Below, piece after piece: positions 35,229-61,030 of a stretch of DNA of 64,000 bases. Both the position numbers and the translations under genes were made by a program. The notes beneath the pieces were generated by a model. The model searched no databases. It had not been told where the DNA came from and worked only from the letters and a program-made list of their open reading frames with translations. The first letter of the stretch is position 1; every line of letters begins with the position of its first letter. The stretch is from Chthoniobacterales bacterium (GTDB lineage: Bacteria > Verrucomicrobiota > Verrucomicrobiia > Chthoniobacterales > Chthoniobacteraceae), in the NCBI GenBank assembly GCA_038227825.1, contig JBBRPQ010000018.1, positions 13,675 to 77,674 of the forward strand, read 5' to 3'.

Positions 35229-36218
35229 TCATTTCTTCGCGCGACGGATCACGATCTCCGTCCGCCGATGGCCCTGCATTTCCTCGATCGTCCCAGTCAG
35301 CGGAACGCCCTCGGCTGGGCGGGTCGCTCCGTAGCCGGCGGTTTTTACGTTTTCCGGCGGCACATTCACATTTACGACAAACCACGCCCGTACGGATTCC
35401 GCGCGGCGCTCGCTGAGTTTCTGATTATACTCCGCGGAACCGGTCGGATCCGTATGTCCTTCGATGGTGAATTTTGCCGTCGCAACGTCACTGCCAAGAA
35501 ATTTTTTCAGCGCCTCGGCGATTTTGTCCAATTCCTGGCGCCCATCGTTGCTCACATCCGCGCTGTCGTGACCAAAGGTAAGATTGCCAGGAAGTGAGAG
35601 CCGCCGGCTCGCCCCTGTGCCACTCGTGAGCCCATTCAGGATTCCTTCCACGTCCTGTCCAGCGACTTGGATCGCCTTTGCCGAACCATCGCCATCCGGA
35701 CCGCCCTCGCTCGCCATGCGCGCACTGACTTTCGGTCCGGTGCGGCCGGCGTTGAAAAAGGAGTCGTCGAGCTTCGGCAGCAGATCGTCTGGGTTGGTCT
35801 TCGGCGTCGTGTTGAGCTTCGCCATTTCGACCATCGGCTTTTCGTCCGGCAGCAGCTTCGTGGTATCAATCTCCTTGTGCCTCGGTGATACGCTGATTTC
35901 GTCCGGCGCAGGCAATTCCGCAGGCAGCGTGAGATCCTTCTTTTTGTCCGGCGTCTTCTTTTCCTGCACGACGGTCTTCACCTCATCCTTCTTCGGCTTG
36001 TCATCGATGACCTTCACCCGGTGCAGGGTGGACTCCGCCTTCGCGGGCGGCAGATCTGGCGGGCCAAAATTCTCCAGCGTCTTGAACTGGAAGAAAATCG
36101 CGAGCCCGGCGTGGACGACCAGCGATCCGGTGAGCGCAGTGATGAACCAGCCCCTCGTCAGCGAAGGTGGCTGCTCCTGTTCGGTGAATGCATCGTAGCG
36201 CGGCATCTCATAGTTCAA
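35229..36218 (-). CDS. OmpA/MotB-domain protein with N-terminal TM and Lys/Pro-rich spacer
   Basis: The C-terminal peptidoglycan-binding motif reads FTIEGHTDPTGSAEYNQKLSERRAESV. Confidence 0.75.
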   Translation of the reverse strand: MNYEMPRYDAFTEQEQPPSLTRGWFITALTGSLVVHAGLAIFFQFKTLENFGPPDLPPAKAESTLHRVKVIDDKPKKDEVKTVVQEKKTPDKKKDLTLPAELPAPDEISVSPRHKEIDTTKLLPDEKPMVEMAKLNTTPKTNPDDLLPKLDDSFFNAGRTGPKVSARMASEGGPDGDGSAKAIQVAGQDVEGILNGLTSGTGASRRLSLPGNLTFGHDSADVSNDGRQELDKIAEALKKFLGSDVATAKFTIEGHTDPTGSAEYNQKLSERRAESVRAWFVVNVNVPPENVKTAGYGATRPAEGVPLTGTIEEMQGHRRTEIVIRRAKK

Positions 36219-36272
36219 TACCGCTGCCCGAAGTGAAATGCAAACACGCAGGCGTGCCGTATTCCGCGCGCA

Positions 36273-37601
36273 TCACTCGGGCAAATCCTGTCCTTTCGTC
36301 TCAGGCAGGAACGTCAGCATCACGATGCCGAAGATGAAAAGCCCGCCAAGGCAGGTGATCGCGGTGCGCAGGCTGAAGACAGACTTCATCCATGGCGACA
36401 GCCAGAACAGCACCGGGCTCGCGAGGATGCGGCCGGTATTGAAACAAAAGCCCGATCCCGTCGAGCGAAGGTGCGTGGGGAACAGCGTGGGAAAATAAAC
36501 CGCATATCCCGCGTGGATGCTCTGCGCGAAAAATGCGAACAGCGGCAGCAGCACGAGCAGCGCGATGTAGCCGTTGTCCATTGGCGGAATCACGCCATCC
36601 GCCTTCAGCGCGTGCGCGTCTGGTGTCGAAAGGAGCCACGGTACCCAGCACACGACCGGCGTGACCACGAGCGCGCCGATGTGCATGAAGACGAACGTGC
36701 GCTTCGATCCCCATCGCGCGCTCAGCGGGCCGAACGCAAGCATCCCCGCTCCCGCGCCCGCGGCCTGGATGTAGCCGAACGCGATCTTCGACTTGCTCGC
36801 CCAATTCGGATCACCGACCCGCTTCAGCAATTCCTCCGCGAGATTTTGCCCCGCGACAACAACGCCCCAGAATGTCGCCAGCCCTGCCATCGCGAGCAGC
36901 GCGCCGCACAACGCGCGCGATCGCCATTTCGGATCGCCGAGCAATTCGCGGAAGCTCCCGAGCCGCCCGGCCTTGGTCTGCCTAGCCTCCTTCCATGCCT
37001 CCGGCTCGCGGATGCTCATCCGCACCCACAGCACGAGCAGCGCAGGCACGACGCCGAGCAGGTACGCCGTGCGCCAGTGATTGCCGACAAAGAGACCCGC
37101 AGTCGCCGCGAGCCACAGCCCGCCGACGCTCGTCGCGTGAAAAATCCCGCCAGCCCGCTCGCGCGCTGCTTTCGGAAAAACCTCCGCCACGAGCGCCGCG
37201 CCGACAGCCCACTCGCCGCCCACGCCCATCGCGACGAGAAACCTCAGCACGCCGAAGTGCCACAGCTCGGTAACGCCCGCGCTCAGCCCCGAGAACACCG
37301 AGTAGAACAGAATCGTGAGCGCCATCACCGGATTGCGGCCGATGCGATCCGCCATCGAGCTGAACAGCCAGCCGCCGATCGTGCCGCCGAGAAGGAACAC
37401 CGCGCTGAACTTGTCGCCCCATGATTTGATGTCCGCATCACTCGCATGGCCCTTCAGCAGCTCCGGCAGCATGTCGCCGCGCGTGATGTTGAAAAGCTGG
37501 CCCTCAAACGCATCGAACATCCACCCGAGCGACGCGACGATGAGCACGATCCACTGGTAGCGTGTGACGCTCGAATACCACTTCGGCTGCTCGGGGCTCA
37601 T
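36273..37601 (-). CDS. MFS transporter
   Basis: Roughly 12 hydrophobic segments and the MFS loop motif MADRIGRNP. Start taken at MSPEQPKWY. Confidence 0.8.
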   Translation of the reverse strand: MSPEQPKWYSSVTRYQWIVLIVASLGWMFDAFEGQLFNITRGDMLPELLKGHASDADIKSWGDKFSAVFLLGGTIGGWLFSSMADRIGRNPVMALTILFYSVFSGLSAGVTELWHFGVLRFLVAMGVGGEWAVGAALVAEVFPKAARERAGGIFHATSVGGLWLAATAGLFVGNHWRTAYLLGVVPALLVLWVRMSIREPEAWKEARQTKAGRLGSFRELLGDPKWRSRALCGALLAMAGLATFWGVVVAGQNLAEELLKRVGDPNWASKSKIAFGYIQAAGAGAGMLAFGPLSARWGSKRTFVFMHIGALVVTPVVCWVPWLLSTPDAHALKADGVIPPMDNGYIALLVLLPLFAFFAQSIHAGYAVYFPTLFPTHLRSTGSGFCFNTGRILASPVLFWLSPWMKSVFSLRTAITCLGGLFIFGIVMLTFLPETKGQDLPE

Positions 37602-37628
37602 TCGGTGAATTTCGCGGCACGCCCTCAA

Positions 37629-38912
37629 TCAAAGCGCGACAGTTCGTCCGGGCACGGCGATGGGGTAATTGCCATCCGCATCCGGCTTCACGGGCGGGTC
37701 CATGTCCCACGACACTTTCTCCGGCATGAGCTGGAGCTTGGAATTGATAGCCTCATCCCACTCGATGAGCTTGCCAGAGTAAGTCGCCATGCGGCCCATG
37801 ATCGCCGTCATCGTGCTCATCGCGGCGATCTCGAGTTCGTTGTATGGCGTGTCGTTTCGGATCGCCTCGATGAGAGGGTAATGTTCGAGCTGGTGCCCGT
37901 CTTCGCCGGTCTTGAGCCGCATCTCCCAAGGATTCGCGCCAGTGATGCGGAACAGCTTTGATCCCACATTCAGATCCGCGCGCCCCTTCGTGCCGACGAC
38001 ATGCTCGCTCACCTCCTGATGCGTGCCTGCCTGGCCCTGCCGGCATTGGCTGAAAAGTTTCGTCCCATCCGCATACTCATACTCGACGAAGTGATGATCG
38101 AAAATCTGCCCGTGCAGAGCCTTGTCATTGCGCACCTGCCGCCCGCCCATGCCCTGCGCGCGCACGGGATGACCGCCCTTGATCCAGTTCATGATGTCAA
38201 TGTTATGGATGTGCTGATCCACGATGAAGTCGCCGGAGATCCACGTGAAATAGTACCAGTTGCGAAGCTGGTAGTGCAGCTCGTCCTCGTCTGCCAGCCT
38301 CGGCTGGCCCGCGCGCGCATTGCCGAGCCAGTAGCAAGTCATCGAAGTGATGTCGCCGATCGCCCCTTCATGGATGCGCTTCACCGTCTCGATATAGGAA
38401 GGCTGATGATGCCGCTGCAGCCCGACGCCGATCTTCAGATTCTTCTTCTTCGCCTCCGCTGCCGCTGCGAACACGACGCGAACTCCCGGAGCATCCACCG
38501 CGAGCGGTTTCTCGACGAAGACATGCTTCCCCTGCTTCACCGCCTCCGCGAGATGATACGGATGAAATCCCTGCGGCGTCCCGATGATCACAAGGTCCGC
38601 AAGCGTGATGGCCTCCCTGTAAGCCTCGAAGCCGATGAACTGATTCGCCGTCGAGACGTCCACCTGCCCAGGATGTTTTTTCTTCAGCACGCCGAGACTC
38701 TTGTCGAGTTGCTCCTGCGAAATGTCGGCCATCGCGATCAGCCGCAGCCCCTTGTCCGTCGTGAGATTCTGGCTCGCCGCGCCAGTGCCGCGCCCGCCGC
38801 AACCGATCATCGCGACTTTGATCGTGTCGGAATATTTTGCGGCAAGCGAATGCGTCGCCACGGCGATTGTTGCAGCCGTCGTGGTGGTGATGAATCGGCG
38901 TCGTGTAGTCAT
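37629..38912 (-). CDS. Gfo/Idh/MocA oxidoreductase with Tat signal
   Basis: MTTRRRFITTTTAATIAVA, then IGCGGRGTGAA and EKPLA. Confidence 0.85.
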   Translation of the reverse strand: MTTRRRFITTTTAATIAVATHSLAAKYSDTIKVAMIGCGGRGTGAASQNLTTDKGLRLIAMADISQEQLDKSLGVLKKKHPGQVDVSTANQFIGFEAYREAITLADLVIIGTPQGFHPYHLAEAVKQGKHVFVEKPLAVDAPGVRVVFAAAAEAKKKNLKIGVGLQRHHQPSYIETVKRIHEGAIGDITSMTCYWLGNARAGQPRLADEDELHYQLRNWYYFTWISGDFIVDQHIHNIDIMNWIKGGHPVRAQGMGGRQVRNDKALHGQIFDHHFVEYEYADGTKLFSQCRQGQAGTHQEVSEHVVGTKGRADLNVGSKLFRITGANPWEMRLKTGEDGHQLEHYPLIEAIRNDTPYNELEIAAMSTMTAIMGRMATYSGKLIEWDEAINSKLQLMPEKVSWDMDPPVKPDADGNYPIAVPGRTVAL

Positions 38913-38930
38913 GGTGGGATTTGGTTGGCG

Positions 38931-39977
38931 TTAAAACTTCAGCATCTCGGCGACAGGCAGTGGACGCTTTTGCCGGATGGATTCCTCGGCGACTAGGCAC
39001 AGGCCCGCGGACCACAGGCCGTCGAATCCGCTCGCGGCGGGCGGCGTGCCGTGGCGCACCATCTCGACACAGCGAGCGATTTCCGCATGCAGTTCGAAGA
39101 CCTCGCCGCTCTGCTTTTCGAGCTTCACTTCCTCCAGCTTCTCGCCGTCGAAGACTTTCAGAAATGCCACCGGCTCCAGCGTGCGATCCAGCGCACCGCT
39201 CCAGCCCGCCCACAGCGCGCCCTTCGTGCCGCTCACCTTCACGGTCTGGTGATGCTCGAATGCCGCGAGCGTCTGCGAGACGACGGCGTAGCTGCCGTTC
39301 GCGCAGCGGAACATCGCGCTGAAATTGTCAAACAGCGCGGGCCGCTGCGGGTCGCGCGAATTTGCGTACGCGTGAAGCTCGATGGGATCGCCGCTGCCTT
39401 CGAGATACCACCGCGCGAGATCGAAAAAATGAATAGGCTCCTCCAGCACCCAGCTCCCGACGCGCGTCGGATCATAGCGCCATCCGTCAGCACCGAGGCG
39501 GTAGGGTTTCCGCGAAAGCTCCACGAGCACATACTGCGGCTCGCCGATTACGCCGCGCTCGATGATTTTTTTGATCTCACCCCATTGCGACGAGAGCCGG
39601 AACTCGTGTCCGACCGCAAGATGCACGCCGTGATTCCGCGCTGCGGCGACAATGGCCTTGCAGTCCTCCAGCGTGGTCGCCATCGGCTTTTCGAGCAGGA
39701 CGTGCTTGCCGCGTTCCATCGCTGCGAGCGCGAGCGCGCGGTGCGTGTGGCTCGGCGTGGCGATGTCGATGATGTCGAAGTCTGCCTCCGCGACCATTGC
39801 CAGGCTGTCGGAGAAAATCTTTGCACCCGGATGCAGCCTGCACGCTTCCTCGCGCGAAGCCTCGGACGGCGCGGCAATGGCGACGAGCTGCGCGTCAGGA
39901 TTTCCAGCGATGGACTGCGCGTGAAATTTCCCCCAAGCGCCGAAACCGGCGAGGGCGAAGCGGACGGGCTGTGTCAT
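38931..39977 (-). CDS. Gfo/Idh/MocA oxidoreductase (cytoplasmic)
   Basis: FALAGFGAWGKFHA and LLEKPMA. Confidence 0.85.
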   Translation of the reverse strand: MTQPVRFALAGFGAWGKFHAQSIAGNPDAQLVAIAAPSEASREEACRLHPGAKIFSDSLAMVAEADFDIIDIATPSHTHRALALAAMERGKHVLLEKPMATTLEDCKAIVAAARNHGVHLAVGHEFRLSSQWGEIKKIIERGVIGEPQYVLVELSRKPYRLGADGWRYDPTRVGSWVLEEPIHFFDLARWYLEGSGDPIELHAYANSRDPQRPALFDNFSAMFRCANGSYAVVSQTLAAFEHHQTVKVSGTKGALWAGWSGALDRTLEPVAFLKVFDGEKLEEVKLEKQSGEVFELHAEIARCVEMVRHGTPPAASGFDGLWSAGLCLVAEESIRQKRPLPVAEMLKF

Positions 39978-39978
39978 G

Positions 39979-41124
39979 TCAGTGGCGAGGTGCGGTGGTG
40001 AGCGGCGTGACGGGCTCCTTCACGAGCCGTCCCTGCAACTCGTTCAACCGGCAGGCTGGCAGTTTTGGCAGGACGTATTTTGCAAACAGTTCGCACTCGT
40101 CGAGGTGCGGATAGCCGCTGATGATGAACGCGCGGATGCCCATGTCCATGTAGCGGTTCAGCTTTGCGAGCACCTGATCGGGGTCGCCCACGATCGCGCT
40201 CGCGCAGCCGCTGCGCGCGAGGCCGATGCCACTCCACAGATGCGGCTCGATGTAGAGATCCTTGCTCTGCGCGCGCAGTTCGTCCTGCCGCTTCACGCCC
40301 GCGCTTTGGCTGTCCTGCGAACGCGCTTTGATCTCCGCGCCCTTCGTGGCGTCGAGTTTTGAAATGAGACGTTCTGCAGCGGCGCGTGCCTCAGATTCGG
40401 TCTCGCGCACGATGACGTGTGTGCGGAAGCCGAAATCAATCATGCGCCCGTGCGCGGCGGCTTTTTCCGACATCACGCGCATCGTCTCCGCGATGCGATC
40501 CTCCGTCTCCGGCCACATGAGGAACACATCGCAATGCTTCGCACATAGCTCCTGCGCAGCAGGCGAGATGCCTCCGAAATACATCAGCGGCCCGCCATTC
40601 TGCTGGTAGCACTTTGCCGGCTCCGTCGTCGGCAGGGTGATGTTGTAAAACTCGCCCTTCCACTCGAACGCGCCATCCGTGCGCCACATGCCTTGCAGGA
40701 TTTGGATGATCTCGCTGGCCCGCGCGTAGCGCACCTCGTTGCTCTCCTTTGCGCCCGGCATGTCGGACGAGATGATGTTGATGCACAGCCGACCCTTCGC
40801 GATGTGGTCCACCGTGGCGAGCGCGCGGGCGAGCATCGGCGGCCAGACCTCACCCATGCGCAGCGCGATGAGTTGATTGATCTGCCGCGTCTGCGGTGCC
40901 ATCGCCGCGGCAAAGGCGAGCGCGTCCTGCCCCGCAATCCAGCCGGAGGGCAGCAGGATGTTTTGAAAACCGTGAGCGTCCGCGCAGCGCATGATCTCGC
41001 CGCAGTGTGCGTAGCTGCTGCGCAGCGCGCCATCAGGCACGCCGAGGAATTCGTAGTCGTCGCCGCACAGCGCGGAAAACCATGCGGTCTCGCAGCGGCG
41101 TTCGGGGGTGCGGATGGGGAGCAT
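39979..41124 (-). CDS. luciferase-like (LLM class) flavin-dependent monooxygenase, SsuD-like
   Basis: Start at MLPIRT. The sequence shows a TIM-barrel LLM pattern ([33 protein letters not shown]). Confidence 0.75.
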
Positions 41125-41205
41125 CGGGAATGACGAATGACGGATGACCAATGGCGAGGCAAGCAGCACATCCGCGGAACGCACCTTGTAGGCGATGGTC
41201 TGCTC

Positions 41206-41296
41206 GTAGCGTTGCTCTCCAGAGCTGCGCAGATCGCGTCGGGGAGTGATGAAGTGCCCACGCCTGCAAGCGCGCAGCTCTGGAAAGCTACGCTAC
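41206..41296. repeat. 91-nt palindromic element, same family as 54294..54363
   Basis: Arms are GTAGCGTTGCTCTCCAGAGCTGCGC and GCGCAGCTCTGGAAAGCTACGCTAC (2 mismatches). The right arm closely resembles the right arm at 54338..54363. Confidence 0.6.
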
Positions 41297-41366
41297 GGCT
41301 GCCGCCGCGTTCCCGCTTGCACCAACCGTCGCGTGCTCGCATCTTCGCCGCCCTTTTTCAAAACCT

Positions 41367-43133
41367 ATGAGCCAGACCAAAGAAATCCCGTTGATGGAAA
41401 AAATCGTGAGCCTGTGCAAGCGGCGCGGCTTCATTTTCCAAAGTTCGGAAATCTACGGCGGCATCAACGGCTTCTGGGACTACGGCCCGCTCGGCGCGGA
41501 GCTGAAGCGCAACCTGCGCGACACCTGGTGGCGCGCGATGACGCGCGACCGCGAGGACGTGGTGGGCCTCGACGCGACCATCATCATGCACCCGGCGATT
41601 TGGAAGGCGTCGGGGCATGTGGACACGTTTGCGGACCTCATGCGCGAGTGCTCGATCACGAACAAGCGCGTGCGCGCGGATCACGTCGAACCGCAGAGCG
41701 GCACGGTGATGCGCTTCACGGCGGTCGAGTCGCCATCGGGCTGGCGGATGGATCGCCATTTCACGGTGCTCATGAAAAAGACCGAGCACATCGAAAGCTT
41801 CCGCAAGCGCGTGCGCGCGATGCTCGCGCAGGGTGCGGGTGCGGCTGCTGGAAAGCCCGAGGAGCTCGTCCTGCACGGCGAGGTGAAGATTGATGTGCTG
41901 GAGAACACGGTGGATTTTCACCCCGAGACCGGCGGGATGCTCACCGAGGCGCGGCCTTTCAATCTCATGCTGAAGACCTACGTCGGCCCGACGGCGACGG
42001 AGGATGACATCGCGTATCTGCGGCCCGAGACAGCGCAGGCGATCTTTGCGCAGTTCAAGAACACCGTGGACAGCACGCGCGTGAAGGTGCCCTTCGGCAT
42101 CTGCCAAATCGGCAAGGCGTTTCGCAACGAGGTCACGCCGCGCAATTTCACGTTCCGCTCCCGCGAGTTCGAGCAGATGGAGCTGGAGTTTTTCATCCCG
42201 CCGGACGAGGCGGTGCGGATCGTCCACCTCAGCGTCGCGCCGTGGAGCGAAGGCGCGGACCTTTCCTCGCCGCAGCCAAATTGGGGCTGGGAAATGTGGC
42301 ATCGCTACTGGGTCGCGCAGCGCACGGCTTACTATGCGGGCATCGGGCTCGGTTCGGACGTGCTCGACTATCACTGGCAGACAAAAGCGGACCTAGCGCA
42401 TTACGCCCGCGCGTGCGTGGACATCCTGTTCAAGTTTCCGTTTGGCACCGAGGAGCTCGAGGGCATCGCCGCGCGCGGTGACTTCGACCTCACGCAGCAC
42501 CAGAAGCACAGCGGCAAACCGCTGGAGATTTTCGACGAGGAACTCCGCGCCGCCGCCGCGAAGCTCAGCGACATGGAGCGTCACGACTTCATCGGTCGGG
42601 TGGAATTGGAGTGGGCCGACCGCGGCAAGTCGCGCGAAGAGGCCAAGGCATTCTGCGACCGGCTGCTGAAAGGCTTCTACGTCCCGCACGTCATCGAGCC
42701 GTCCGCCGGACTCGACCGCCTCGCGCTCGCTGTGCTCGCGCTCGCCTACACCGAAGTCGAGAAGACGGACGCGAAGGGCAACAAGGAGACAGTCACGGTG
42801 ATGCGGTTCCACCCGCGCATCGCGCCGAAGAAAGTCGCCGTGTTTCCGCTGCTGAAAAACAAGCCCGAACTCGTGGCGAAGGCGCGGGAGATTTACGAGA
42901 CGCTGAAGAAGCACATGGCCGCCGACTACGACGAGGGCGGTAGCATCGGCAAACGCTACGCGCGGCAGGACGAGGCGGGCACACCGTTCTGCGTCACCGT
43001 GGATTTCGACACGCTCGGCGAAAAAGGCCCGGAACTGAAGGATACCGTGACGCTCCGCCACCGCGACGACGGCTCGCAAGAGCGCGTGCCGATCAGCGAA
43101 CTGCTCGGACGCCTGCTGCCGCTGGTGAGCTAG
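41367..43133 (+). CDS. glyQS: glycine--tRNA ligase (class II, homodimeric type)
   Basis: LCKRRGFIFQSSEIYGGINGFWDYGPLG, FRNEVTPRNFTFRSREFEQMELEFF, and PSAGLDRL. Confidence 0.9.
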   Translation: MSQTKEIPLMEKIVSLCKRRGFIFQSSEIYGGINGFWDYGPLGAELKRNLRDTWWRAMTRDREDVVGLDATIIMHPAIWKASGHVDTFADLMRECSITNKRVRADHVEPQSGTVMRFTAVESPSGWRMDRHFTVLMKKTEHIESFRKRVRAMLAQGAGAAAGKPEELVLHGEVKIDVLENTVDFHPETGGMLTEARPFNLMLKTYVGPTATEDDIAYLRPETAQAIFAQFKNTVDSTRVKVPFGICQIGKAFRNEVTPRNFTFRSREFEQMELEFFIPPDEAVRIVHLSVAPWSEGADLSSPQPNWGWEMWHRYWVAQRTAYYAGIGLGSDVLDYHWQTKADLAHYARACVDILFKFPFGTEELEGIAARGDFDLTQHQKHSGKPLEIFDEELRAAAAKLSDMERHDFIGRVELEWADRGKSREEAKAFCDRLLKGFYVPHVIEPSAGLDRLALAVLALAYTEVEKTDAKGNKETVTVMRFHPRIAPKKVAVFPLLKNKPELVAKAREIYETLKKHMAADYDEGGSIGKRYARQDEAGTPFCVTVDFDTLGEKGPELKDTVTLRHRDDGSQERVPISELLGRLLPLVS

Positions 43134-43197
43134 TCCCTTCGATTGCCCGTCTTTTCAGCACGGCATTCACCGGTCCTCCATGGCGGGTCAGGTGACG

Positions 43198-43335
43198 ATT
43201 TCTGCGAAAACTTCGCGAACGTTGCCGCCTCAATGTGCGCAGGGATGTGCCGCATGAGGTTCAGGTAGTTAGGCATATCCATTTCCAAAGGCTGCTGCAG
43301 CGCGAGCCGGGTTCGTTGAGTGATGGCTGCATTTC
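43198..43335 (-). pseudogene. tgt: orphan 3-prime fragment of tgt
   Basis: The minus-strand translation PNYLNLMRHIPAHIEAATFAKFSQK parallels the intact Tgt C-terminus HFYLNLMRRIRTHIEAGTFAEFRKKF. Only the last roughly 25-45 codons are present. It lies convergent with glyQS. Confidence 0.65.
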
Positions 43336-43414
43336 TCAAGTGCCATGTGATTTCTGTGAGGTCACATCAAGGGGCATCAGGCACGCTTTGTGCATAAGCG
43401 GTTCAGCCAACCTG

Positions 43415-44998
43415 ATGAAAAACCACATTTCTCCCGCCTTTGTGGCACAGCGCGCCGGGAGTTTTTCTGAGCATGGCGGCCGCTCCGTTTCAGGCATTCG
43501 TGCCGAAACACGAAGCGATTCGGCTTTTCGGGTTTTGGAGCGAAATGCTGAGCCCGTCTCGCGGCAGGCAGGCTCTGTGGATATTCCTCTTTGCGTGGAT
43601 TGCGATGGAACCTTGATCGCTGGCGATCTGTTGATCGAGTCAGTGTTGCGGGCCGTTTTTGCGAAACCTTCGATCTTGTTTTGCCTTCCCGCTTGGCTGT
43701 TGGCTGGCAAGGCCGAGTTCAAGCGGAAGGTCGCCGGATTGACGGAATTCGATCCCGGGGCGCTTCCATATCGGGCGGAGGTTTTGGAGTTCCTGCGTGA
43801 GGAGTTCCAGCGTGGCCGGAGGCTATTTCTCGTGACAGCAGCCGAAAAGACCCTCGCTGAGAAGGTGGCCGATCATCTGGGGATATTCGAAGGTGTTCTG
43901 GCCAGTGATGGGGAATGTAATCTCAAAGGCAGTGCAAAGGCAGATCGCTTGGCGCAAATGTTCGGTCGTGAGGGATTTGATTATGCAGGAGATGCAGATG
44001 CTGATCTCCCGGTTTGGGAGGCTTCCAGGAATGCAATCACAGTTGCGAGTTCCACGGCGACACTTCGAAAGCTAGAAGCCACGAAGACCCCCATTTTGAC
44101 ATTTCCAAGACCGGAGACGTCTCTCAGCACTTGGCTGAGGCTCATGCGAATCCATCAGTGGGCTAAGAACCTCCTGATTTTTGTTCCCCTCATCACATCG
44201 CATCGTTTCAACGAGTTTGCGACTCTAGCGAACACGCTCTTGGGCTTTCTGGCATTTGGATTGATGGGATCGAGCACCTACATCCTGAACGATCTGGCGG
44301 ATATCCAAAATGACAGAAATCATCCCTCTAAAAGGAACCGGCCGATTGCTTCTGGCGAGATTGCGCCCAGGGATTCGATCGTATTTGCATTGATGCTTTC
44401 CGGGGGAGCCGCGGCGCTATGCCTTGGTCTTTCCCTGTCGTGCGTTTCGATTCTGGCATGCTACACCCTGCTTACCGTCACCTATACCTTAGCCGTGAAG
44501 CAGAAGCTCATGATGGATGTGGTCATGCTGGCTGGTTTGTATGCTATCCGCATTATTTTTGGTCACGCGTTGGGTGGCATTCCATTCTCAGTTTGGCTTT
44601 CAGCATTCGCGATCTTCACTCTATTCAGCCTTGCCCTGGCGAAAAGATATACGGAATTGATCAATCCGGCGGTGCGTAGAGCGGGTGCAACCAAAGGGAG
44701 AGACTATAAACCTGGAGATGAGGGTCCAGTGTCTCAACTTGGAACGGCGAGCGGAATGGTCGGTATCATGGTGTTGGTTCTTTATGTGAACAGTCCGGAA
44801 GTGCAGAAGCTTTACAATGAGCCGCGTCTGCTCCTGTTGTTGTGCCCTCTTTTTCTATATTGGATCGGAAGAATATGGATGCTGACCCACCGAGGTGAAT
44901 TGCACGATGACCCAGTGGTTTTTGCCCTTAGGGACCGTGTGAGTTACCATGTTGGTGGCATGGCTGTTGCAGTGCTCATTCTGGCCTCATGGTTATGA
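43415..44998 (+). CDS. HAD-phosphatase / UbiA-family polyprenyl-phosphate phosphoribosyltransferase-like fusion
   Basis: HAD motif I is DCDGT and motif IV is GDADAD. The UbiA motif reads NDLADIQNDRNHPSKRNRPIASG, and multiple TM helices follow. The start is uncertain (ATG 43415; the HAD domain begins around 43585). Confidence 0.75.
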   Translation: MKNHISPAFVAQRAGSFSEHGGRSVSGIRAETRSDSAFRVLERNAEPVSRQAGSVDIPLCVDCDGTLIAGDLLIESVLRAVFAKPSILFCLPAWLLAGKAEFKRKVAGLTEFDPGALPYRAEVLEFLREEFQRGRRLFLVTAAEKTLAEKVADHLGIFEGVLASDGECNLKGSAKADRLAQMFGREGFDYAGDADADLPVWEASRNAITVASSTATLRKLEATKTPILTFPRPETSLSTWLRLMRIHQWAKNLLIFVPLITSHRFNEFATLANTLLGFLAFGLMGSSTYILNDLADIQNDRNHPSKRNRPIASGEIAPRDSIVFALMLSGGAAALCLGLSLSCVSILACYTLLTVTYTLAVKQKLMMDVVMLAGLYAIRIIFGHALGGIPFSVWLSAFAIFTLFSLALAKRYTELINPAVRRAGATKGRDYKPGDEGPVSQLGTASGMVGIMVLVLYVNSPEVQKLYNEPRLLLLLCPLFLYWIGRIWMLTHRGELHDDPVVFALRDRVSYHVGGMAVAVLILASWL

Positions 44999-46881
44999 AA
45001 CGATTTCGCAATTGGATTGCGAAAAAATGCGAAAACCGAGTAGCCGACATCATTTCGGCACTCGTCTATGCAAGGATCCAGGGCCAGGCGGCTCAGTTTA
45101 CTGATGGACTTGCCAATCAAGTGGCAAAATTAGTGGCCGCGCAGCAGGCTCGGATGCCGGATATCCTTAGGTTGCCTATCCGCATTCTTACAGTGCTATT
45201 CGATGCCAGTGGTTTGGGTTTCTTTCTCCGAGTATTTCGCCGCCAGAATAGCGGCCAACGTTCCACGCAGGCTGCTCTTTGGCGGAATGCCATCTTCGGC
45301 CCTTGCCGAGACCTGATGCGCTTTTATGACAGCCTGATCACTCTGGCGTCGCTCGACGGAGAGACGCCCCAAGCCATCAAGCCGAATCGAGCGTACAGCA
45401 GCGCCCCGGCGATTGTCAGCAGCTCGGATTGCGAAGTCGCCGTGATCGGGTCCGGTCCTGGGGGTGCCATTTCGGGAGTGATCTGGGCAGAGGCGGGTGC
45501 GAATACCTTGATGCTTGAAGAAGGCGCAAACCTGCCGCTGGAATCTTGCAAGCCGTTTTCGATCGCTGAAATGGTGCAGAAGTACCGTCGAGGTGGCCTA
45601 ACAGCGACATTGGGAAAAAGCAAAATCGCCTATGTGGAGGCTGCGTGTGTTGGGGGAGGCAGTGAGGTGAACAGCGGGCTCTACCATCGGACTCCAAATG
45701 ACGTCCTCACACATTGGGCGGACCGCTACCGACTTGAATCTGCAGCGCTTAGCGACATGGAGCCGCATTTTGAAGCATGTGAACGCGATTTTTCGGTTTC
45801 GTATCTTCAAGGCGCGGCGCCCGGAGCATCGCTGAAATTGAAACAGGGTGCTGATGCGCTGGGATGGCGTTGTCAGGAGGTCCCGCGGTGGTTTCGCTAC
45901 AGCAAAACTGGTCCCAACGGAACGGACATTGGCAACCCTGTGTCTGGTGAGCGCCAGTCGATGACCCGTGCGATGATACCGAGATTTGTTGCATCTGGTG
46001 GCAAATTGATCAGCGAGGCCAGAGTGCTCAAGATTCACCGTGATCGGACAAGGTGGTTGCTTGATGTGAGAAGTTCCAGCGGCCAGATCGGGCGGATTTC
46101 TGCGGAGAGGGTGATCCTTTCTGCGGGGGCGATCGGGACGCCCGCGCTTCTGCAGAGATCTTCGCTTGGGAAAAATGTCGGTCGCCGGCTGCAGATGCAT
46201 CCGACTATCAAGGTTGTGGCGCTGTTCGACGAGGAAGTGAACAGCGCGGAAATGGGTGTCCCGGTTCACCAAGTGAAGGAATTCGCGCCTGGATTCAGCT
46301 TCGGATGCTCCATTAGCTCGAAACCCTACCTCGCCCTAGCGATGCTCGATCACCCGGACCATGCGCACCTCGTGGAAACAAATTGGAAACGCATGGCGAT
46401 CTATTACGCAATGATAGTGCCGGAAGGTCACGGTTCGGTGAGAGCCTTACCGGGCTTTAATGATCCGCTCGTCACATATGCTCTTTCAAACGGTGACATG
46501 AGGGCCCTCTCTCAAGCGCTCCGAAAGCTCTGCGAATTGCTCTTCGCTGCGGGTGCGCGTTCCCTCTTTCCCAGCATCACGGGCCAACCACATTTGAGGG
46601 ACCAGGATGATCTTGGCACGCTGCCTGCGTTGATTCCGCGCAGCCGAGCCAACCTAATGACCATACACCTCTTTTCCAGTTGCCCGATGGGCGAAGACCA
46701 ATCCATGTGCGTGGGCGATTCCTATGGGCGGGTTCATGGCCACGAAAGGCTCATTATCTCCGATGCAAGCCTCCTGCCGAGCGCCCCGGGAGTGAACCCG
46801 CAGGGCTCCGTGATGGCTTTTGCGCGGCGCAATGCCTTGGCGCTTGCAGGTGCGTCAAGTGCGGAAATGAGCCACCGCTGA
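44989..46881 (+). CDS. GMC-family FAD oxidoreductase with roughly 130-aa N-terminal extension
   Basis: VAVIGSGPGGAISG. The C-terminal GMC motif reads VHGHERLIISDASLLPSAPGVNPQGSVMAFA. An alternative ATG at 44995 would give an ATGA overlap. Confidence 0.8.
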   Translation: MVMKRFRNWIAKKCENRVADIISALVYARIQGQAAQFTDGLANQVAKLVAAQQARMPDILRLPIRILTVLFDASGLGFFLRVFRRQNSGQRSTQAALWRNAIFGPCRDLMRFYDSLITLASLDGETPQAIKPNRAYSSAPAIVSSSDCEVAVIGSGPGGAISGVIWAEAGANTLMLEEGANLPLESCKPFSIAEMVQKYRRGGLTATLGKSKIAYVEAACVGGGSEVNSGLYHRTPNDVLTHWADRYRLESAALSDMEPHFEACERDFSVSYLQGAAPGASLKLKQGADALGWRCQEVPRWFRYSKTGPNGTDIGNPVSGERQSMTRAMIPRFVASGGKLISEARVLKIHRDRTRWLLDVRSSSGQIGRISAERVILSAGAIGTPALLQRSSLGKNVGRRLQMHPTIKVVALFDEEVNSAEMGVPVHQVKEFAPGFSFGCSISSKPYLALAMLDHPDHAHLVETNWKRMAIYYAMIVPEGHGSVRALPGFNDPLVTYALSNGDMRALSQALRKLCELLFAAGARSLFPSITGQPHLRDQDDLGTLPALIPRSRANLMTIHLFSSCPMGEDQSMCVGDSYGRVHGHERLIISDASLLPSAPGVNPQGSVMAFARRNALALAGASSAEMSHR

Positions 46882-46882
46882 A

Positions 46883-47956
46883 ATGGCACGAATCTTTGTT
46901 ACCGGGGCAGCCGGGTGGTTGGGGTTGAACCTGATTGAAGCGTTAGCCGGCGCTCACAATGCCGATTCCGGATTGGAATCGGAGGCGTTGACGCTCTTGC
47001 TCCATTCCAGCGACTCAGAGCGTGAGGTTCGCACCAAGATGCCTCATGCGCGCATCGTTCGGGGAGACTTAACTTATCCGGGCTCGTTGAAGGACCTTTT
47101 TGCTGATGGCCGTGACGGCATCCTATTTCACATGGCCGGGATCATTCATCCGAGCCGTGTGCGCGAATTCTTCGAAATCAACCGCGACGGCACCCGGCAT
47201 CTTCTCGAAGCTGCAAAGGAGGCGGGAGTTCGCAGGGCTGTCGTCGTTTCTTCAAACTCCCCCTGCGGTTGCAATCCTCACCCGGATCATCGTTTTGACG
47301 AAGATTCATCATACCGACCGTATATGAATTACGGGAAGTCTAAAATGGAAATGGAGCAGCTTGTGCAGGAGTTTTACGAAAGGGGGGATATGGAAACGGT
47401 GATTGTCCGTGCTCCATGGTTTTACGGGCCTCACCAGCCACCGAGGCAGAAGCTCTTCTTCGAGATGATCCGCGATGGCAAAATGCCACTGGTAGGCGAC
47501 GGCCAAAATCTTCGTTCAATGGCATATACGGGAAACCTTGCGCAGGGCCTCCTTTTGGCTGCAACCAAAGCCAAAGCTGCGGGGCAAACCTACTGGATAG
47601 CCGACGAGCGTCCCTATTCAATGAACGAGATCATCGAGACTATCGAGCGTCTTCTGGAGTCTGAATTCCAGCAGAGCTGTGCTCATCGGCGTATCAAGCT
47701 GCCAAATGTGGTCAGCGACATCGCATATCTTGCTGACTTATGCATGCAGTCCCTTGGGTTGTATCATCAAAAGATCCACGTCCTTTCCGAAATGAACAAA
47801 TCGATCGCCTGCTCAATCGATAAGGCGAAACGGGAGTTGAATTACCTTCCCGTCGTCTCGCTGGAGGAAGGAATGAGACGGAGCTTGGCGGAAGTCTTTT
47901 CCACAACCAGCAACAAGAAAAAAAACTTTGAGTATGCTGGGCGCGGCACCTGTTAA
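46883..47956 (+). CDS. extended SDR, NAD-dependent epimerase/dehydratase family
   Basis: IFVTGAAGWLGLNL and YGKSK. The gene starts 1 nt after the GMC stop. Confidence 0.85.
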   Translation: MARIFVTGAAGWLGLNLIEALAGAHNADSGLESEALTLLLHSSDSEREVRTKMPHARIVRGDLTYPGSLKDLFADGRDGILFHMAGIIHPSRVREFFEINRDGTRHLLEAAKEAGVRRAVVVSSNSPCGCNPHPDHRFDEDSSYRPYMNYGKSKMEMEQLVQEFYERGDMETVIVRAPWFYGPHQPPRQKLFFEMIRDGKMPLVGDGQNLRSMAYTGNLAQGLLLAATKAKAAGQTYWIADERPYSMNEIIETIERLLESEFQQSCAHRRIKLPNVVSDIAYLADLCMQSLGLYHQKIHVLSEMNKSIACSIDKAKRELNYLPVVSLEEGMRRSLAEVFSTTSNKKKNFEYAGRGTC

Positions 47957-49628
47957 TTCCCATACGGACGGTGTTGCCGCAGTTGGCAGCTCCGCAAATG
48001 GTGCCAGCGCGCAATGGTGGCTCTCTGCCTGGTTTGCGATTCCGTTTCTGATCGTGGTGGTGCTGTTGTCGCGACTAACATCGATTTCGATTAATTCAGA
48101 GCTGAACCCGGACGAGAGTCAGATGCTGGCGCAGGCCATGCGAATCGGAATCGATCCGGTGCCCTGGAGGGGAATGGATGGCACGACAAGCGGACCCGTT
48201 AACTCCTGGGCGCTGTTTGTTCTCCATAAGCTGGGTATGCCACTTAGGCATTCGCATGCGCACGCTGTCGCAGCAGCAATTCTCGCCTCGTTGAGCGTCT
48301 TGACTTATGCTACGCTCCGCCAAGTTGGGTCAAAGTCGCATGCATTTATTGGAGCGGGGCTGACCGCATTCGTCATCACCCTGGCCCAGGACGACAATTT
48401 CACCCATTTTACAAGCGAGCTCATTTCTGCTCAGCTCATGGCGATGGCACTGTTTTGTTGCGCGCTGCGTTTCCGCTTTCCGATGCAAAGCATTGCGTTG
48501 GACTGTGCATCAGGATTGATGCTGGGAATCATCCCGTGGGCAAAGCTCCAGTCGATATTGGGAGCGGGAGCGCTCGCCATGTGGCTTGGTTGGCAGATAT
48601 GGCGTGGCTCCTTCTTCGGTGAGAATTTCCCGAATAAAAGATTCAAGCACCTGATTGCTTTTGGCGCTGCGTTTCTGCTGCCTGCGATACTGATGATGGG
48701 AGTCATCATCAATTTCGGAGCGGTAGAAGACTTTTGGGGCTCCTACATTCAAACAAGTATGGCCTACTCCTCCGCTGATCGGAACGGGAGTTCTTTTTTA
48801 CAGAGGGCTGTCCTTCTTTTTACCAAGGAGCACGCCGGTTACTTGAGTCAATCTGTTGGTCTTTTTGCGCTGGCATGGGGTGTGTGTAGATTCCAAGGTT
48901 GGAAAACCGCCATCCTTCCCGCCAAGAAACTCATCCCTCTATTAGCCGGCATGGCGATCATCACCGCCGTAGCAGTATTAAAACCTCCTTACCTCTTTTC
49001 GCACTATGGGATCCTCCTGTTTCAGCCTTTGACATTGTTGGCCGGCTGCATTCTTGCAGCTTGGAAGCCAAATTCCCTTTCGCTTCAAGGTCAACGGTTT
49101 CCTGCAATCTTGCTGATTCTCTGCTTTGCTGGTGTCCACATAGCAAAGCTATCGCCTCCGATTTTGTATTCACACTACTGGAATCAGGTGCGCCCTGATA
49201 ACAAGGGGGGGGCTTTGCGATTGGTTAGTGATGGGATGGATGCGATAGCGCCTGACATTAAAAGTCTGGTGGTATGGGGCTGGATGCCATCCCTTTATGT
49301 GGAGAAGGGGATAGCGCCAGCGACACGTCATGCAATCTGTCACTTCCTGATCGATCCGGGTCCTGCGCAGGCTAGGCTTCGTGAAGGATTCCTGTCGGAT
49401 ATCCGCCGGGAGAAGCCGGATATGATTGTGGATGTGGTTGCTGGGGGATGTTTTCGTTGGTACTGGGATTGTACGCGCAGGATGGGTTGCTTTCCTGAAC
49501 TGTTGGAATATGTGCAAACCCACTATGTTCTGTCAGCCGAATTGGGAGTGAAGAGTCCTGTGAATCCAGTCCGCTTCTACCTATCCCGCGAATACTTGGC
49601 AGGCCGTGCAAGATTGGAGGCTGAATGA
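47934..49628 (+). CDS. polytopic GT-C-like membrane glycosyltransferase candidate
   Basis: At least 10 hydrophobic helices. The first loop carries an acidic motif LNPDESQMLAQAMR. The C-terminal soluble domain includes VVWGWMPSLYV. It overlaps the previous gene by 23 nt. Confidence 0.6.
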   Translation: MLGAAPVNSHTDGVAAVGSSANGASAQWWLSAWFAIPFLIVVVLLSRLTSISINSELNPDESQMLAQAMRIGIDPVPWRGMDGTTSGPVNSWALFVLHKLGMPLRHSHAHAVAAAILASLSVLTYATLRQVGSKSHAFIGAGLTAFVITLAQDDNFTHFTSELISAQLMAMALFCCALRFRFPMQSIALDCASGLMLGIIPWAKLQSILGAGALAMWLGWQIWRGSFFGENFPNKRFKHLIAFGAAFLLPAILMMGVIINFGAVEDFWGSYIQTSMAYSSADRNGSSFLQRAVLLFTKEHAGYLSQSVGLFALAWGVCRFQGWKTAILPAKKLIPLLAGMAIITAVAVLKPPYLFSHYGILLFQPLTLLAGCILAAWKPNSLSLQGQRFPAILLILCFAGVHIAKLSPPILYSHYWNQVRPDNKGGALRLVSDGMDAIAPDIKSLVVWGWMPSLYVEKGIAPATRHAICHFLIDPGPAQARLREGFLSDIRREKPDMIVDVVAGGCFRWYWDCTRRMGCFPELLEYVQTHYVLSAELGVKSPVNPVRFYLSREYLAGRARLEAE

Positions 49629-50653
49629 GGGCGTTGGTCACTGGCGGCTCAGGTTACTTTGGTTCACTTCTGGTGAGGAAAATGCGCGACGAAGGGCATG
49701 AGGTCGCCGTCCTTGATGTGAATGATGCGAGTGACCGTCCTGTGGATGTCATGTTTCACGGAGTGGATATCCGTGACCGTCGTGCGCTGATGGATTGTGT
49801 GCGCGGTTACACGCATGTTTTTCACAATGTGGCCCAAGTGCCCCTTGCGAAGGATAAGCGGCTTTTCCGCTCTGTGAATGTCGATGGCACTGCAAACATT
49901 CTAGAAGCGAGCCTCGCTGCGGGCGTGAGGAAATTCGTTTATACTTCATCCAGCGCGGTTTTTGGAGTGCCGCTGTCAAATCCTGTCTTGGAGGATACAC
50001 CGCCCGAGCCAGGTGAGGCGTATGGTGCCGCAAAACTCGAAGGTGAGAGGAAGTGCCATGAAGTGTCTGCCCGTGGTCTTGATGTTTCCATCATCCGGCC
50101 CCGTACGATTCTTGGGCACGGCCGGTTGGGAATATTCCAGATTCTTTTCGAATGGATACGGAAGGGCCTAAATGTGCCGGTTTTGGGAGATGGGAATAAC
50201 GTCTATCAATTTGTCCATTCAGATGATTTGGCGACAGCATGCATGCTCGCGGCGGCTCGTCCAGGACCCGCAACCTACAATATCGGCGCTGCCGAGTTCG
50301 GAACCATGAGGGAGGCCCTGGAAGGCCTATGTGCTCATGCCCAGACCGGTTCAAAAGTCCGTTCTGTGCCTATGGGACTTGCGGTCGCTGGTATGAAGCT
50401 GACATCAGTTCTCGGTTTGTCCCCGCTTGGGGCCTACCACGCGTTGATGTATGGACGCTCCATGTATTTCGATATCGGCAAGGCTCAGCGCGAATTGGCA
50501 TTCACGCCGCGATTCACGAACGCAGAGATGCTGAGGCAAAGCTATGATTGGTACCTCATGAACGCATCCGGCGCGGCGGCTGCGTGTGGTCAAAGTCACC
50601 ATCGTTCGCCAGTTAAGCAGGGAGTGTTGTCACTGTTCGCTCGATTTTTATAG
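49625..50653 (+). CDS. extended SDR, NAD-dependent epimerase/dehydratase family
   Basis: ALVTGGSGYFGSLL and YGAAK. ATGA overlap with the GT-C-like gene. Confidence 0.85.
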   Translation: MRALVTGGSGYFGSLLVRKMRDEGHEVAVLDVNDASDRPVDVMFHGVDIRDRRALMDCVRGYTHVFHNVAQVPLAKDKRLFRSVNVDGTANILEASLAAGVRKFVYTSSSAVFGVPLSNPVLEDTPPEPGEAYGAAKLEGERKCHEVSARGLDVSIIRPRTILGHGRLGIFQILFEWIRKGLNVPVLGDGNNVYQFVHSDDLATACMLAAARPGPATYNIGAAEFGTMREALEGLCAHAQTGSKVRSVPMGLAVAGMKLTSVLGLSPLGAYHALMYGRSMYFDIGKAQRELAFTPRFTNAEMLRQSYDWYLMNASGAAAACGQSHHRSPVKQGVLSLFARFL

Positions 50654-50773
50654 CTGACGCCAAACAGGCCTTCCGTGCAGGTGAAGGTGGCGGCTTCTGC
50701 TTGTGTTGCGGAGAAATGTTTGATTTTTGGAAGCCGAGTGTTCGCTTGGTGACACGGCTCGCATGATGCGATT

Positions 50774-51892
50774 TTAGTCGTGCGTTTCTTCCGCCTTCCA
50801 CGGCACGTATTCGCCCACGAACTTTTTCCGGAACTCCGCGAATGTCCCGGCCTCGATGTGCGTGCGGATGCGGCGCATGAGATTCAGGTAGAAGTGCAGG
50901 TTGTGCAGCGTGACGAGGCGCAGGCCGAGGATTTCGTTGGCCTTGAGGAGATGGCGCAGGTAGCCGCGGGCGAACTTCCGGCACGCGGGGCATTCGCAGC
51001 CGGATTCGATGGGGCCTTCGTCCATCGTGAACTCGGCGTTTTTCAGATTCAGCGTGCCGCGCTCGGTGAAGGCGGTGCCGTTGCGCGCGATGCGCGTGGG
51101 CAGCACGCAGTCGAATAGGTCCACGCCGCGCGCGACCATTTCCACGAGCTGCGGGGGCGTGCCGAGGCCCATCGCGTAGCGCGGCTTGTCGGCGGGCAGG
51201 AAGGGCTCGGCGGACTCGACGGCCTTCATCATTTCCGGCTCGGGCTCGCCGACACTCACGCCGCCGATGGCGTATCCGTCGAAGCCGATTTGCACGAGCG
51301 CCTCGGCGCTTTCGCGGCGCAGGTCGGCGTAGCTGCTGCCTTGCACGATGCCGAATTTCATCCCCGGCGTCTCGACCTGCTTGCACACGGCGGCCCACTG
51401 GAGCGTGAGCGCGAGCGACTTTGCGGCGTAGTCGCGCTCGCACGGATGCGGCGGGCATTCGTCGAAAAGCATGGCGATGTCGCTGCCGAGCGTGGCCTGG
51501 ATTTCCATCGCCTCGCGCGGACCGAGGAACATCGGCGAGCCGTCGAGGTGATTTTGAAAATGCACGCCCTCGGGGGTGATTTTGCGCAGCTTCGCGAGCG
51601 AGAAGACCTGGAAGCCGCCGCTGTCGGTGAGGATCGGCCGATCCCAGGCCATGAAGCGGTGCAGCCCGCCGAATTTGCGCATCACGTCCATGCCGGGGCG
51701 GACGAAAAGGTGATACGTGTTGCCGAGGATGATCTGCGCGCCGAGCTGCGTGAGTTCGTCCGGCGACACCGCCTTCACCGAGCCCTGCGTGCCGACGGGC
51801 ATGAACTGCGGCGTCTGGATGTCGCCGCGCTTCGTGCGAAGGATTCCGCGGCGGGCTTTGGATGAAGGATCGGTGCCGAGCAGTGTGAACAT
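50774..51892 (-). CDS. tgt: queuine tRNA-ribosyltransferase (tRNA-guanine transglycosylase)
   Basis: Start at MFTLLGTD. Motifs present: [36 protein letters not shown], the Zn site CECPAC, and HNLHFYLNLM. Confidence 0.9.
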   Translation of the reverse strand: MFTLLGTDPSSKARRGILRTKRGDIQTPQFMPVGTQGSVKAVSPDELTQLGAQIILGNTYHLFVRPGMDVMRKFGGLHRFMAWDRPILTDSGGFQVFSLAKLRKITPEGVHFQNHLDGSPMFLGPREAMEIQATLGSDIAMLFDECPPHPCERDYAAKSLALTLQWAAVCKQVETPGMKFGIVQGSSYADLRRESAEALVQIGFDGYAIGGVSVGEPEPEMMKAVESAEPFLPADKPRYAMGLGTPPQLVEMVARGVDLFDCVLPTRIARNGTAFTERGTLNLKNAEFTMDEGPIESGCECPACRKFARGYLRHLLKANEILGLRLVTLHNLHFYLNLMRRIRTHIEAGTFAEFRKKFVGEYVPWKAEETHD

Positions 51893-52152
51893 GGGGCGGA
51901 GACGATAGTCGGCGGCGATGCGGGATGAAGGACGAAAGTCGGATGAAATTTCGCCGTGAACGATGGCCTCTGCAATTTCGGCGGGCTTGGCTCTCCAGAG
52001 GCCGTGCAAAAGTGTGTTTGCTGTGCGATTCGCGCGTCGGGACTGAATTTGGAAGCCATGACACCATGAAATCCGTGCATTTGACTCTTCAGTTCCTGGA
52101 TTCATGGCTTCCAAATTCGATGCTGCGGATTTTTTGTACAGTCTCTCAGCGA

Positions 52153-52593: not shown

Positions 52594-52603
52594 CGTGGGA
52601 TGA

Positions 52604-54216
<1,613 letters not shown>

Positions 54217-54293
54217 GAGCGGCGAGGAAGAAGGAAACGGCGGCGGAAATCCAGCACCGTCCTCGCAGCCGCTGCGCGGATGCCGGGGTGCCC

Positions 54294-54363
54294 TGTAGCG
54301 TAGGTCTCCTGACCTGCGCGTTGCTGGGGCACGGCCTGCGCAGCTCGGGAGATCTACGCTACA
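54294..54363. repeat. 70-nt palindromic element followed by A8
   Basis: Arms are TGTAGCGTAGGTCTCC and GGAGATCTACGCTACA (1 mismatch). Inner pairing is CTGCGC/GCGCAG. It belongs to the same family as 41206..41296. Confidence 0.6.
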
Positions 54364-55085: not shown

Positions 55086-55100
55086 CCCGAGGTAATCCCC

Positions 55101-57335: not shown

Positions 57336-57359
57336 CCTTTGTGTTAAAAATTTAGCACC

Positions 57360-61026: not shown

Positions 61027-61030
61027 GGTG

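Follow-up and report, generated by a model that had tools for sequence, protein, structure and literature searches.

A stranded tgt 3' end beside glyQS marks the far edge of an operon gained next to tgt in a Chthoniobacterales bacterium

Background

The locus described here raises the question of how a second copy of the end of tgt came to lie against glyQS, some 7.5 kb from the intact gene, and what kind of event placed the intervening DNA there. The window, by which we mean the whole 64,000-nucleotide stretch that was analyzed, comes from a Chthoniobacterales contig. A preliminary description, made from its sequence by itself, had noticed the fragment and attributed the arrangement to an integrated element.

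Results and Discussion

The fragment beside glyQS

The intact tgt gene lies on the minus strand at 50774-51892 and specifies a protein of 372 amino acids that scores 525 bits against the Pfam TGT model. The open reading frame listed for it (50774-52357, 527 aa) is over-extended: homology to Tgt models and to the proteins of relatives begins at the methionine at 51892, and the 155-aa N-terminal extension of the listed frame has no homology. The intact protein ends in ...HFYLNLMRRIRTHIEAGTFAEFRKKFVGEYVPWKAEETHD followed by the stop codon, and the minus-strand translation of the orphan fragment has the core ...MPNYLNLMRHIPAHIEAATFAKFSQKSSPDPPWRTGE..., for which the count of 15 identities in 21 core residues given in the preliminary description is correct. 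In the wider comparison, the minus-strand translation of 43130-43339, which reads ...LEMDMPNYLNLMRHIPAHIEAATFAKFSQKSSPDPPWRTGE..., was set against the complete Tgt end, ...LHNLHFYLNLMRRIRTHIEAGTFAEFRKKFVGEYVPWKAEETHD and stop.

The orphan occupies 43166-43268 on the minus strand (103 bases) and corresponds to nucleotides 1001-1107 of tgt, i.e. codons 335-369, its counterpart in the intact gene being 50786-50892. It shares 19 of 35 residues with Tgt (BLASTP, E=1e-9 in a single pairwise comparison), and a six-frame tblastn search of the whole window with Tgt recovers it at E=6.4e-6. At the nucleotide level, 48 of the 60 bases of 43209-43268 are identical to 50832-50891 (80%; blastn, E=2e-9), and Smith-Waterman scores of 36-45 lie more than 14 standard deviations above those of shuffled sequences (12.6 +/- 1.6, maximum 19). 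The similarity is not due to chance, and the orphan is a genuine copy of approximately the last 35 codons of tgt. The preliminary description had offered a lack of significant similarity to the tgt 3' end on proper alignment as grounds for abandoning its reading; the match at E=6.4e-6 against the whole window speaks for the fragment. Its by-eye estimate of 70-75% nucleotide identity also agrees with the measured values, which are 71% in a MAFFT alignment, 67% within a 78-nt core and 80% within the most similar stretch of 60 nt, the longest exact run common to the orphan and the intact tgt end being 9 nt. The extent of the fragment had to be redrawn: a tgt-like segment does lie within the interval first given, 43198-43335, but the significant similarity spans 43166-43268 and has a sharp upstream edge at 43268|43269, with the remainder of that interval (43269-43335) showing no significant likeness to tgt (shuffle test, p about 0.1-0.2). 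An extension by about 50 nt upstream to around 43320, suggested by MAFFT, was rejected as no better than shuffles.

An empty site in a relative and the age of the orphan

A scan for Tgt across 185,579 species genomes yielded 80 loci, all from Verrucomicrobiota, among which the closest Tgt relatives belong to metagenome-assembled genomes of Chthoniobacterales with 92-96% Tgt identity. In four of the closest relatives glyQS lies downstream of tgt. One of these, L003, has the two genes in convergent orientation with just 7 nt between their stop codons. In the window, glyQS (41367-43133, plus strand) encodes a single-chain glycyl-tRNA synthetase of 588 aa and is convergent with the orphan. The 32 bases between them (43134-43165, minus strand) comprise what is left of the decayed resident tgt tail, together with the spacer that leads to the stop codon of glyQS; they are colinear, save for small indels, with the tgt stop, 7-nt spacer and glyQS stop of L003. 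Given that positions 43267-41920 as a whole align as one colinear block with the tgt end, spacer and glyQS of L003 (79%), this relative represents the empty site and the orphan occupies the ancestral position of the tgt end. The comparison of the glyQS-tgt interval among relatives, proposed in the preliminary description, has thus supplied the empty arrangement, and with it support for the view that the orphan lies where an ancestral tgt stop would be expected and marks the far edge of a roughly 7.5-kb insertion, with glyQS as the far flank. That description had also pointed out that operon-free relatives still carrying the fragment would speak against its reading; no tgt remnant was found beside glyQS in the operon-free relatives L001, L007 and L008, in which other DNA occupies the interval.

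Over its 78-nt gap-free core, the orphan shares 71-73% of bases with the tgt genes of L001, L003 and L006, members of its own clade, and 55-63% with those of more distant Chthoniobacterales. It has lost residues that are invariant in Tgt of 25 relatives, with the arginine of an RIR motif replaced by proline and both the phenylalanine and the valine of an FV motif by serine; in addition, two nearly invariant residues are changed (the glycine of GTF to alanine and the arginine of FR to serine), and the fragment carries indels relative to tgt. The distribution of its differences over codon positions (6:7:13) was rejected as a marker of decay: it does not distinguish decay from functional divergence, since genuine orthologues that are about as distant do not differ from the orphan in this respect in the variable C-terminus. 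The loss of residues and the indels serve instead as the evidence of decay. The closeness to own-clade tgt, the lost invariant residues and the acquired indels together identify the orphan as the old, decayed end of the resident gene, such that of the two origins first offered for it, old or foreign, only the former is retained.

The insert between the orphan and the intact gene

Between the orphan and the stop codon of the intact tgt lie 7.5 kb occupied by five co-directional genes that abut or overlap. The GC content of this insert is 54%, versus 62-64% in the flanks, and a windowed profile, also called for in the preliminary description, places it at 50-60% against 62-68% on either side. 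The third-position GC (GC3) of the five genes ranges from 0.55 to 0.61, versus 0.72-0.88 in every neighboring gene examined (tgt 0.88, glyQS 0.86). The interval is thus a single operon of lower GC, just as had been described, and its deviant composition shows that the ultimate source of the operon lies outside this clade. A non-coding leader (43269-43414, plus strand) begins at the junction with the resident tgt at 43268|43269, and at the other end a spacer of 120 nt (50654-50773) separates the operon from the tgt stop and contains a hairpin with a T-run after it (50759-50771, plus strand). Depending on whether the first gene starts at the ATG at 43415 or the GTG at 43577, the space outside the five genes amounts to 146-308 nt on the leader side. 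An independent Logan assembly of the run SRR19962015 (L082, 7792 bp) covers 43082-50873 with one mismatch (99.99% identity) and spans both junctions, which excludes misassembly. The DNA between the orphan and the intact tgt is hence an insertion, the far edge of which is marked by the orphan.

Scans with Pfam and NCBIfam models detected no integrase or transposase in the five genes of the insert, and none was found among the annotated neighboring genes, in line with the earlier remark that no integrase remains; the insert likewise has no terminal or boundary inverted repeats, and the window contains no tRNA genes. An insertion sequence or transposon was rejected as the vehicle, there being neither a transposase nor terminal inverted repeats. 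As a separate observation, the queA RNA motif of Rfam (RF03093) is matched weakly (27.1 bits versus a gathering score of 52.6, E=0.088) at 43497-43584 on the plus strand, adjoining the upstream side of the first gene. The products of tgt and queA act in one pathway, and this match is probably due to chance.

Predicted function of the operon

All five genes are on the plus strand. The first (43415-44998) encodes a fusion protein in which a HAD phosphatase is combined with a UbiA-family polyprenyl-phosphate phosphoribosyltransferase, recognized by Pfam HAD and UbiA models and by NCBIfam PRK08238 at 602 bits (cut-off 351). It also matches models of the DPPR synthase (decaprenyl-phosphate phosphoribosyltransferase) at 1e-39 to 1e-41, below the cut-offs of those models, and the structure of Rv3806c, an enzyme of this kind (PDB 8j8j; E=2e-22); its N-terminal half contains the HAD domain (PF12710, 1e-8) with a DxDxT motif (CVDCDGTL). 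The NCBI annotation of this gene (P0004, 284 aa) is too short, homologues supporting a length of 473-527 aa; no exact-protein matches were found to this NCBI call or to the Tgt and glycyl-tRNA synthetase of the window. The second gene (44989-46881) encodes a GMC-family FAD oxidoreductase by Pfam and NCBIfam, a candidate for the oxidase half of a ribose-to-arabinose epimerization, and by the same models the third (46883-47956) and fifth (49625-50653) encode extended SDR epimerases/reductases.

The fourth gene (47934-49628, 564 aa) has no sequence match in Pfam, NCBIfam or PDB, and belongs to a rare family, with 34 homologues, mostly metagenomic, found among 5.8 billion clustered proteins. One of these is labelled RgtA/B/C/D-like, and another lies in a galactofuranose/exosortase glycan cluster (L163). 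An AlphaFold (AF2) model built from 28 homologues (pLDDT 89.4, pTM 0.90) was compared with the PDB using Foldseek: all matches with E <= 0.06 are GT-C enzymes (ArnT, STT3, PMT, PglB, AftA/B and Emb, including EmbB), the 32 best are likewise all GT-C, and the TM-score against ArnT is 0.54-0.57. Residues N58, D60 and E61 of the first loop are conserved in the family. The modelled fold thus identifies the product as a predicted GT-C-fold membrane glycosyltransferase.

Genes for these five functions also lie together in a metagenome-assembled genome of Opitutus, in a different gene order, and in contig L081, which carries the closest other copy of the operon in an unrelated genomic context. The surroundings of the other close operon homologues with available DNA are unrelated as well. 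Together these genes look like a self-contained system in which a polyprenyl-phosphate pentofuranose would be made and then moved to a surface glycan by the GT-C enzyme. The sugar is probably ribofuranose converted to arabinofuranose, in the manner of DprE1/E2, a view drawn only from the presence of oxidase and reductase genes. A three-component scheme of this type has been described for the periplasmic or extracytoplasmic addition of pentofuranose, comprising a polyprenyl-phosphate-ribose synthase, a HAD phosphatase and a GT-C enzyme along with auxiliary epimerases (Kelly et al. 2024, PMC11127046). The operon resembles these systems and the mycobacterial DPA pathway (Rv3806c, DprE1/E2, Aft/Emb) in that the UbiA-type phosphoribosyltransferase, the HAD-type phosphatase, the GT-C transferase and the auxiliary epimerase genes are all predicted in it. 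It differs from them in the fusion of phosphatase and transferase, in an oxidase that is a GMC flavoprotein rather than a homologue of DprE1 (a VAO-type enzyme), in a GT-C protein from a rare unannotated family and in its verrucomicrobial host.

A second displaced end and recurrent changes around tgt

The 5' end of tgt is also duplicated. A second orphan on the minus strand (53857-54259), approximately 2 kb upstream of the intact gene, comprises tgt codons 1-120 (53857-54216; 94% nucleotide identity, with Q49 changed to a stop) preceded by a leader (54217-54259) of the type found upstream of tgt in L001, L003 and L007, relatives in which glyQS lies next to tgt. The intervening segment (51893-53856, minus strand) carries a gene for a 403-aa protein (52604-53815) with a native GC3 of 0.75, and this gene adjoins tgt directly upstream in L048 and L004. 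Thus, the intact tgt has the leader and upstream gene of L048 and L004, and the 5' orphan the leader of the other group; two host haplotypes have therefore recombined and been joined at the 5' end of tgt, an outcome that neither a target-site duplication nor an att site would give. The two orphans are unequally diverged: 21 of 360 positions differ in the 5' orphan, with no indels, versus 12 of 60 to 26 of 78 in the 3' orphan, which has at least two (Fisher p=8e-4 to 5e-10).

Partial copies of tgt are also seen in relatives. In L004 (528-2643), tgt is followed by vapBC and then by 234 nt that repeat the tgt end at 92-94% identity, and in L010/L011 (L011 11065-11946) by a 786-bp insert with a single Kinase-PolyVal gene and then a 48-nt copy, identical at 47 of 48 positions and finishing exactly at the stop codon. 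The left edges of these repeats differ (tgt nucleotide about 874 in L004, 1001 in the window and about 1069 in L011), the cargos are unrelated, and the lengths of the duplications run from 48 nt (L010/L011) and 234 nt (L004) to about 105 and about 400 nt in the window, occurring at 3' and 5' ends. Across relatives, the 3' flank of tgt has at least seven different contents, including nothing (L003), vapBC (L007, 11202-11875, and L008), a PD-(D/E)XK nuclease with a HicB-like gene (L001, 11120-13524), a GIY-YIG protein (L002, 7328-8077), an AbiEii-like toxin gene (L006, 12707-13462) and housekeeping genes (L005). This flank looks like a hot spot for cassettes of the defense or selfish type. Among the Pfam families that recur in 80 ORFs downstream of tgt from about 50 related loci there is no recombinase, and no recombinase occurs in the tgt 3' flank of the closest relatives. 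We tentatively propose, at somewhat less than even confidence, that tgt in this Chthoniobacterales lineage is a two-sided, integrase-free recombination hot spot, at which cassettes (defense-type genes, toxin-antitoxin pairs and the glycan operon) may have been added repeatedly by recombination with the conserved gene as anchor, each leaving a displaced gene end as a natural footprint of homology-facilitated illegitimate recombination, in at least four independent cases (the 3' and 5' ends in the window, L004 and L010/L011).

Several further observations concern this neighborhood. The GIY-YIG, PD-(D/E)XK and HNH genes in the tgt flank of relatives raise the idea of homing-like spread; a free-standing homing-endonuclease type of spread was set aside for the window, the cargo of which has no nuclease. 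Gene content is variable across the whole neighborhood: a block of native GC at 36207-41306 (an MFS transporter, two GFO/IDH/MocA oxidoreductases and a luciferase-like monooxygenase) and another at 54260-61030 (a molybdo-hydroxylase, XdhC and MobA) are absent from this place in L001 and L003, the latter block being found upstream of tgt in L013. Finally, the Tgt of L003 shares 94% identity with that of the window, and the other flanking genes of this relative show the usual nucleotide identity of about 75-84%, but for its glycyl-tRNA synthetase (11127-13121) the figure is just 70%. This suggests that L003 is mosaic here, a recombination event having had its breakpoint between tgt and glyQS.

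How the operon may have been added

The operon was added downstream of a complete tgt, and the last ~105 nt of the resident gene were left stranded against glyQS as a decayed pseudogene. As to mechanism, we favor, with middling confidence, homology-anchored recombination at tgt combined with an illegitimate join at the far side. The starting point would have been a convergent, nearly touching tgt and glyQS as in L003, and the donor a related genome already carrying tgt followed by the operon. At one end a crossover inside tgt would have supplied the homologous anchor, and at the other an illegitimate join would have been made at tgt nucleotide 1000/1001 (43268|43269 in the window), a process that might be named homology-facilitated illegitimate recombination; if the incoming fragment was circularized, a single crossover of the Campbell type would be equivalent. 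Such an event would restore a whole tgt and displace the resident 3' end with no need for an integrase. Later, the same process would have brought in the upstream gene and pushed aside the 5' end of the resident tgt (53857-54259).

This mechanism is favored because the duplications occur at either gene end, vary in length and lack a recombinase, and because it is the simplest process that gives both a complete gene and a displaced end. On the anchor side tgt runs without a break, and with the sequence usual for the clade, as far as the insert, and on the far side there is the sharp, non-homologous edge at 43268|43269. The intact gene is 96.5% identical to L001 over nucleotides 964-1104, the same as in the rest of the gene, so that a donor, if there was one, would have been a close relative; this lends no support to the preliminary suggestion that the 3' end was a replacement supplied by an element, as it bears no foreign sign. 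For the 5' event a donor-type haplotype is at hand in L048 and L004, which carry the upstream gene directly before tgt. For the 3' event, none of the 80 genome loci has tgt followed directly by the operon, and a metagenome scan with the glycyl-tRNA synthetase for a close relative returned nothing nearer than 76-83% and no tgt-glyQS neighbors. With identity between the two 3' copies down to 67-80%, the crossover point can no longer be seen. Moreover, since the GC of the operon indicates an ultimate source outside this clade, an earlier, unexplained step that placed it beside a tgt is still needed. There is a precedent for the general scheme: for T6SS effector and Rhs loci it has been proposed that recombination with a conserved 5' part as its anchor left orphaned 3' regions behind (PMC5361080). 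The tgt locus resembles such Rhs, CDI and T6SS effector-immunity loci in the use of a conserved gene part as anchor, with new DNA downstream, the old 3' part kept as an orphan, no recombinase and repeated events. It differs in that the anchor is a housekeeping tRNA-modification gene and not a polymorphic toxin, that the displaced piece is functionless and decaying, and that the cargo is a metabolic operon instead of a toxin-immunity pair.

The reading closest to the preliminary description invokes a site-specific integrative element with a tgt 3' end of its own. By integrating into tgt, this element would have rebuilt the gene and pushed the resident end aside, and its integrase and other mobility genes would have been deleted afterwards. 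We consider this unlikely, although the topology matches that of islands in tRNA and tmRNA genes and at the ends of some protein genes, as in Islander-type islands (PMC4383910) and dusA islands (PMC4482086), in which the target is regenerated and a fragment displaced. Like these and the trmE/SGI1 and prfC/SXT-type gene-end islands, the tgt locus has a regenerated target gene, a displaced fragment at the far end, an empty site in a relative (L003) and a cargo of deviant, seemingly foreign composition; copies of the tgt end recur in L004 and L010/L011 as well. Unlike them, it now shows neither an integrase nor other mobility genes, nor an identical att core. The tgt end does recur as an att-like direct repeat of about 105 nt (67-80% identical) with a longest exact run of 9 nt; decay could have erased a core as well as the integrase. 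However, no integrase or remnant of one is seen, the five genes filling the interval save for spacers of 146-308 and 120 nt, and the survey of about 50 related loci and of the closest relatives gave no recombinase family common to the ORFs downstream of tgt. Furthermore, the repeats differ from case to case in length (48, about 105 and 234 nt) and left edge, one duplication lies at the 5' end and joins two leader haplotypes, the inserts of L004 and L011, which consist of vapBC and of one kinase gene, do not come near the size of an element, and no report of an island at the tgt end was found in the literature searched. Since the partial tgt duplications vary in length, lie at both ends of the gene and occur in other genomes too, general recombination fits better than a single att site. 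Taken with the missing integrase and inverted repeats and the 9-nt longest run, this leaves the earlier description of the locus as the classic footprint of an element integrated at a gene 3' end unsupported.

A single event might instead account for both orphans, if a donor segment of about 10.5 kb (43269-53856) with the upstream gene, a complete tgt and the operon had replaced the middle of the resident tgt. Both orphans are indeed in resident positions, the 5' one with its L001-type leader and the 3' one abutting glyQS, and they bracket one intact tgt. The very unequal decay noted above and the native GC3 (0.75) of the upstream gene, as opposed to that of the operon, render this improbable. 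More improbable still is an insertion independent of homology, in which foreign DNA would have been captured at a staggered double-strand break in tgt, fill-in would have produced a target duplication of ~105 nt, and the last four codons of the intact gene would derive from the insert. The likeness of the intact tgt to its relatives does stop at 50786, 12 nt before the stop codon, and its tail (THD and the stop) is unlike that of all relatives; however, the Tgt tail varies among relatives anyway. The L011 repeat ends exactly at the stop codon, as expected of two native gene ends and not of a random stagger, and the 5' duplication joins two haplotypes and is hence not a target duplication. Duplications of this length are not known to arise from break repair in bacteria. 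Lastly, a chance similarity or assembly artefact is practically impossible: the match is short (35 codons), but it has E=6e-6 against the whole window and a Smith-Waterman score >14 standard deviations above shuffles, runs colinearly with L003 into glyQS, and has the same junctions in a second assembly.

Conclusions

In itself, the locus is a rather ordinary trace of gene gain that adds one more case to scars of a known kind, and the recurring integrase-free duplications at both ends of tgt lend it a mildly interesting point. In this uncultured verrucomicrobium from freshwater, the orphan gives one horizontal gene gain a precise boundary and a polarity. If recombination anchored on tgt is the true mechanism, then genomes with no recognizable mobile elements can add cassettes at a fixed place, and displaced target fragments by themselves are no evidence for an integrase. 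Neither the boundary and its polarity nor the point on cassette addition will surprise specialists. As for the organism, the gained operon is a complete predicted system for lipid-linked pentofuranose glycosylation, which would probably alter its cell surface.
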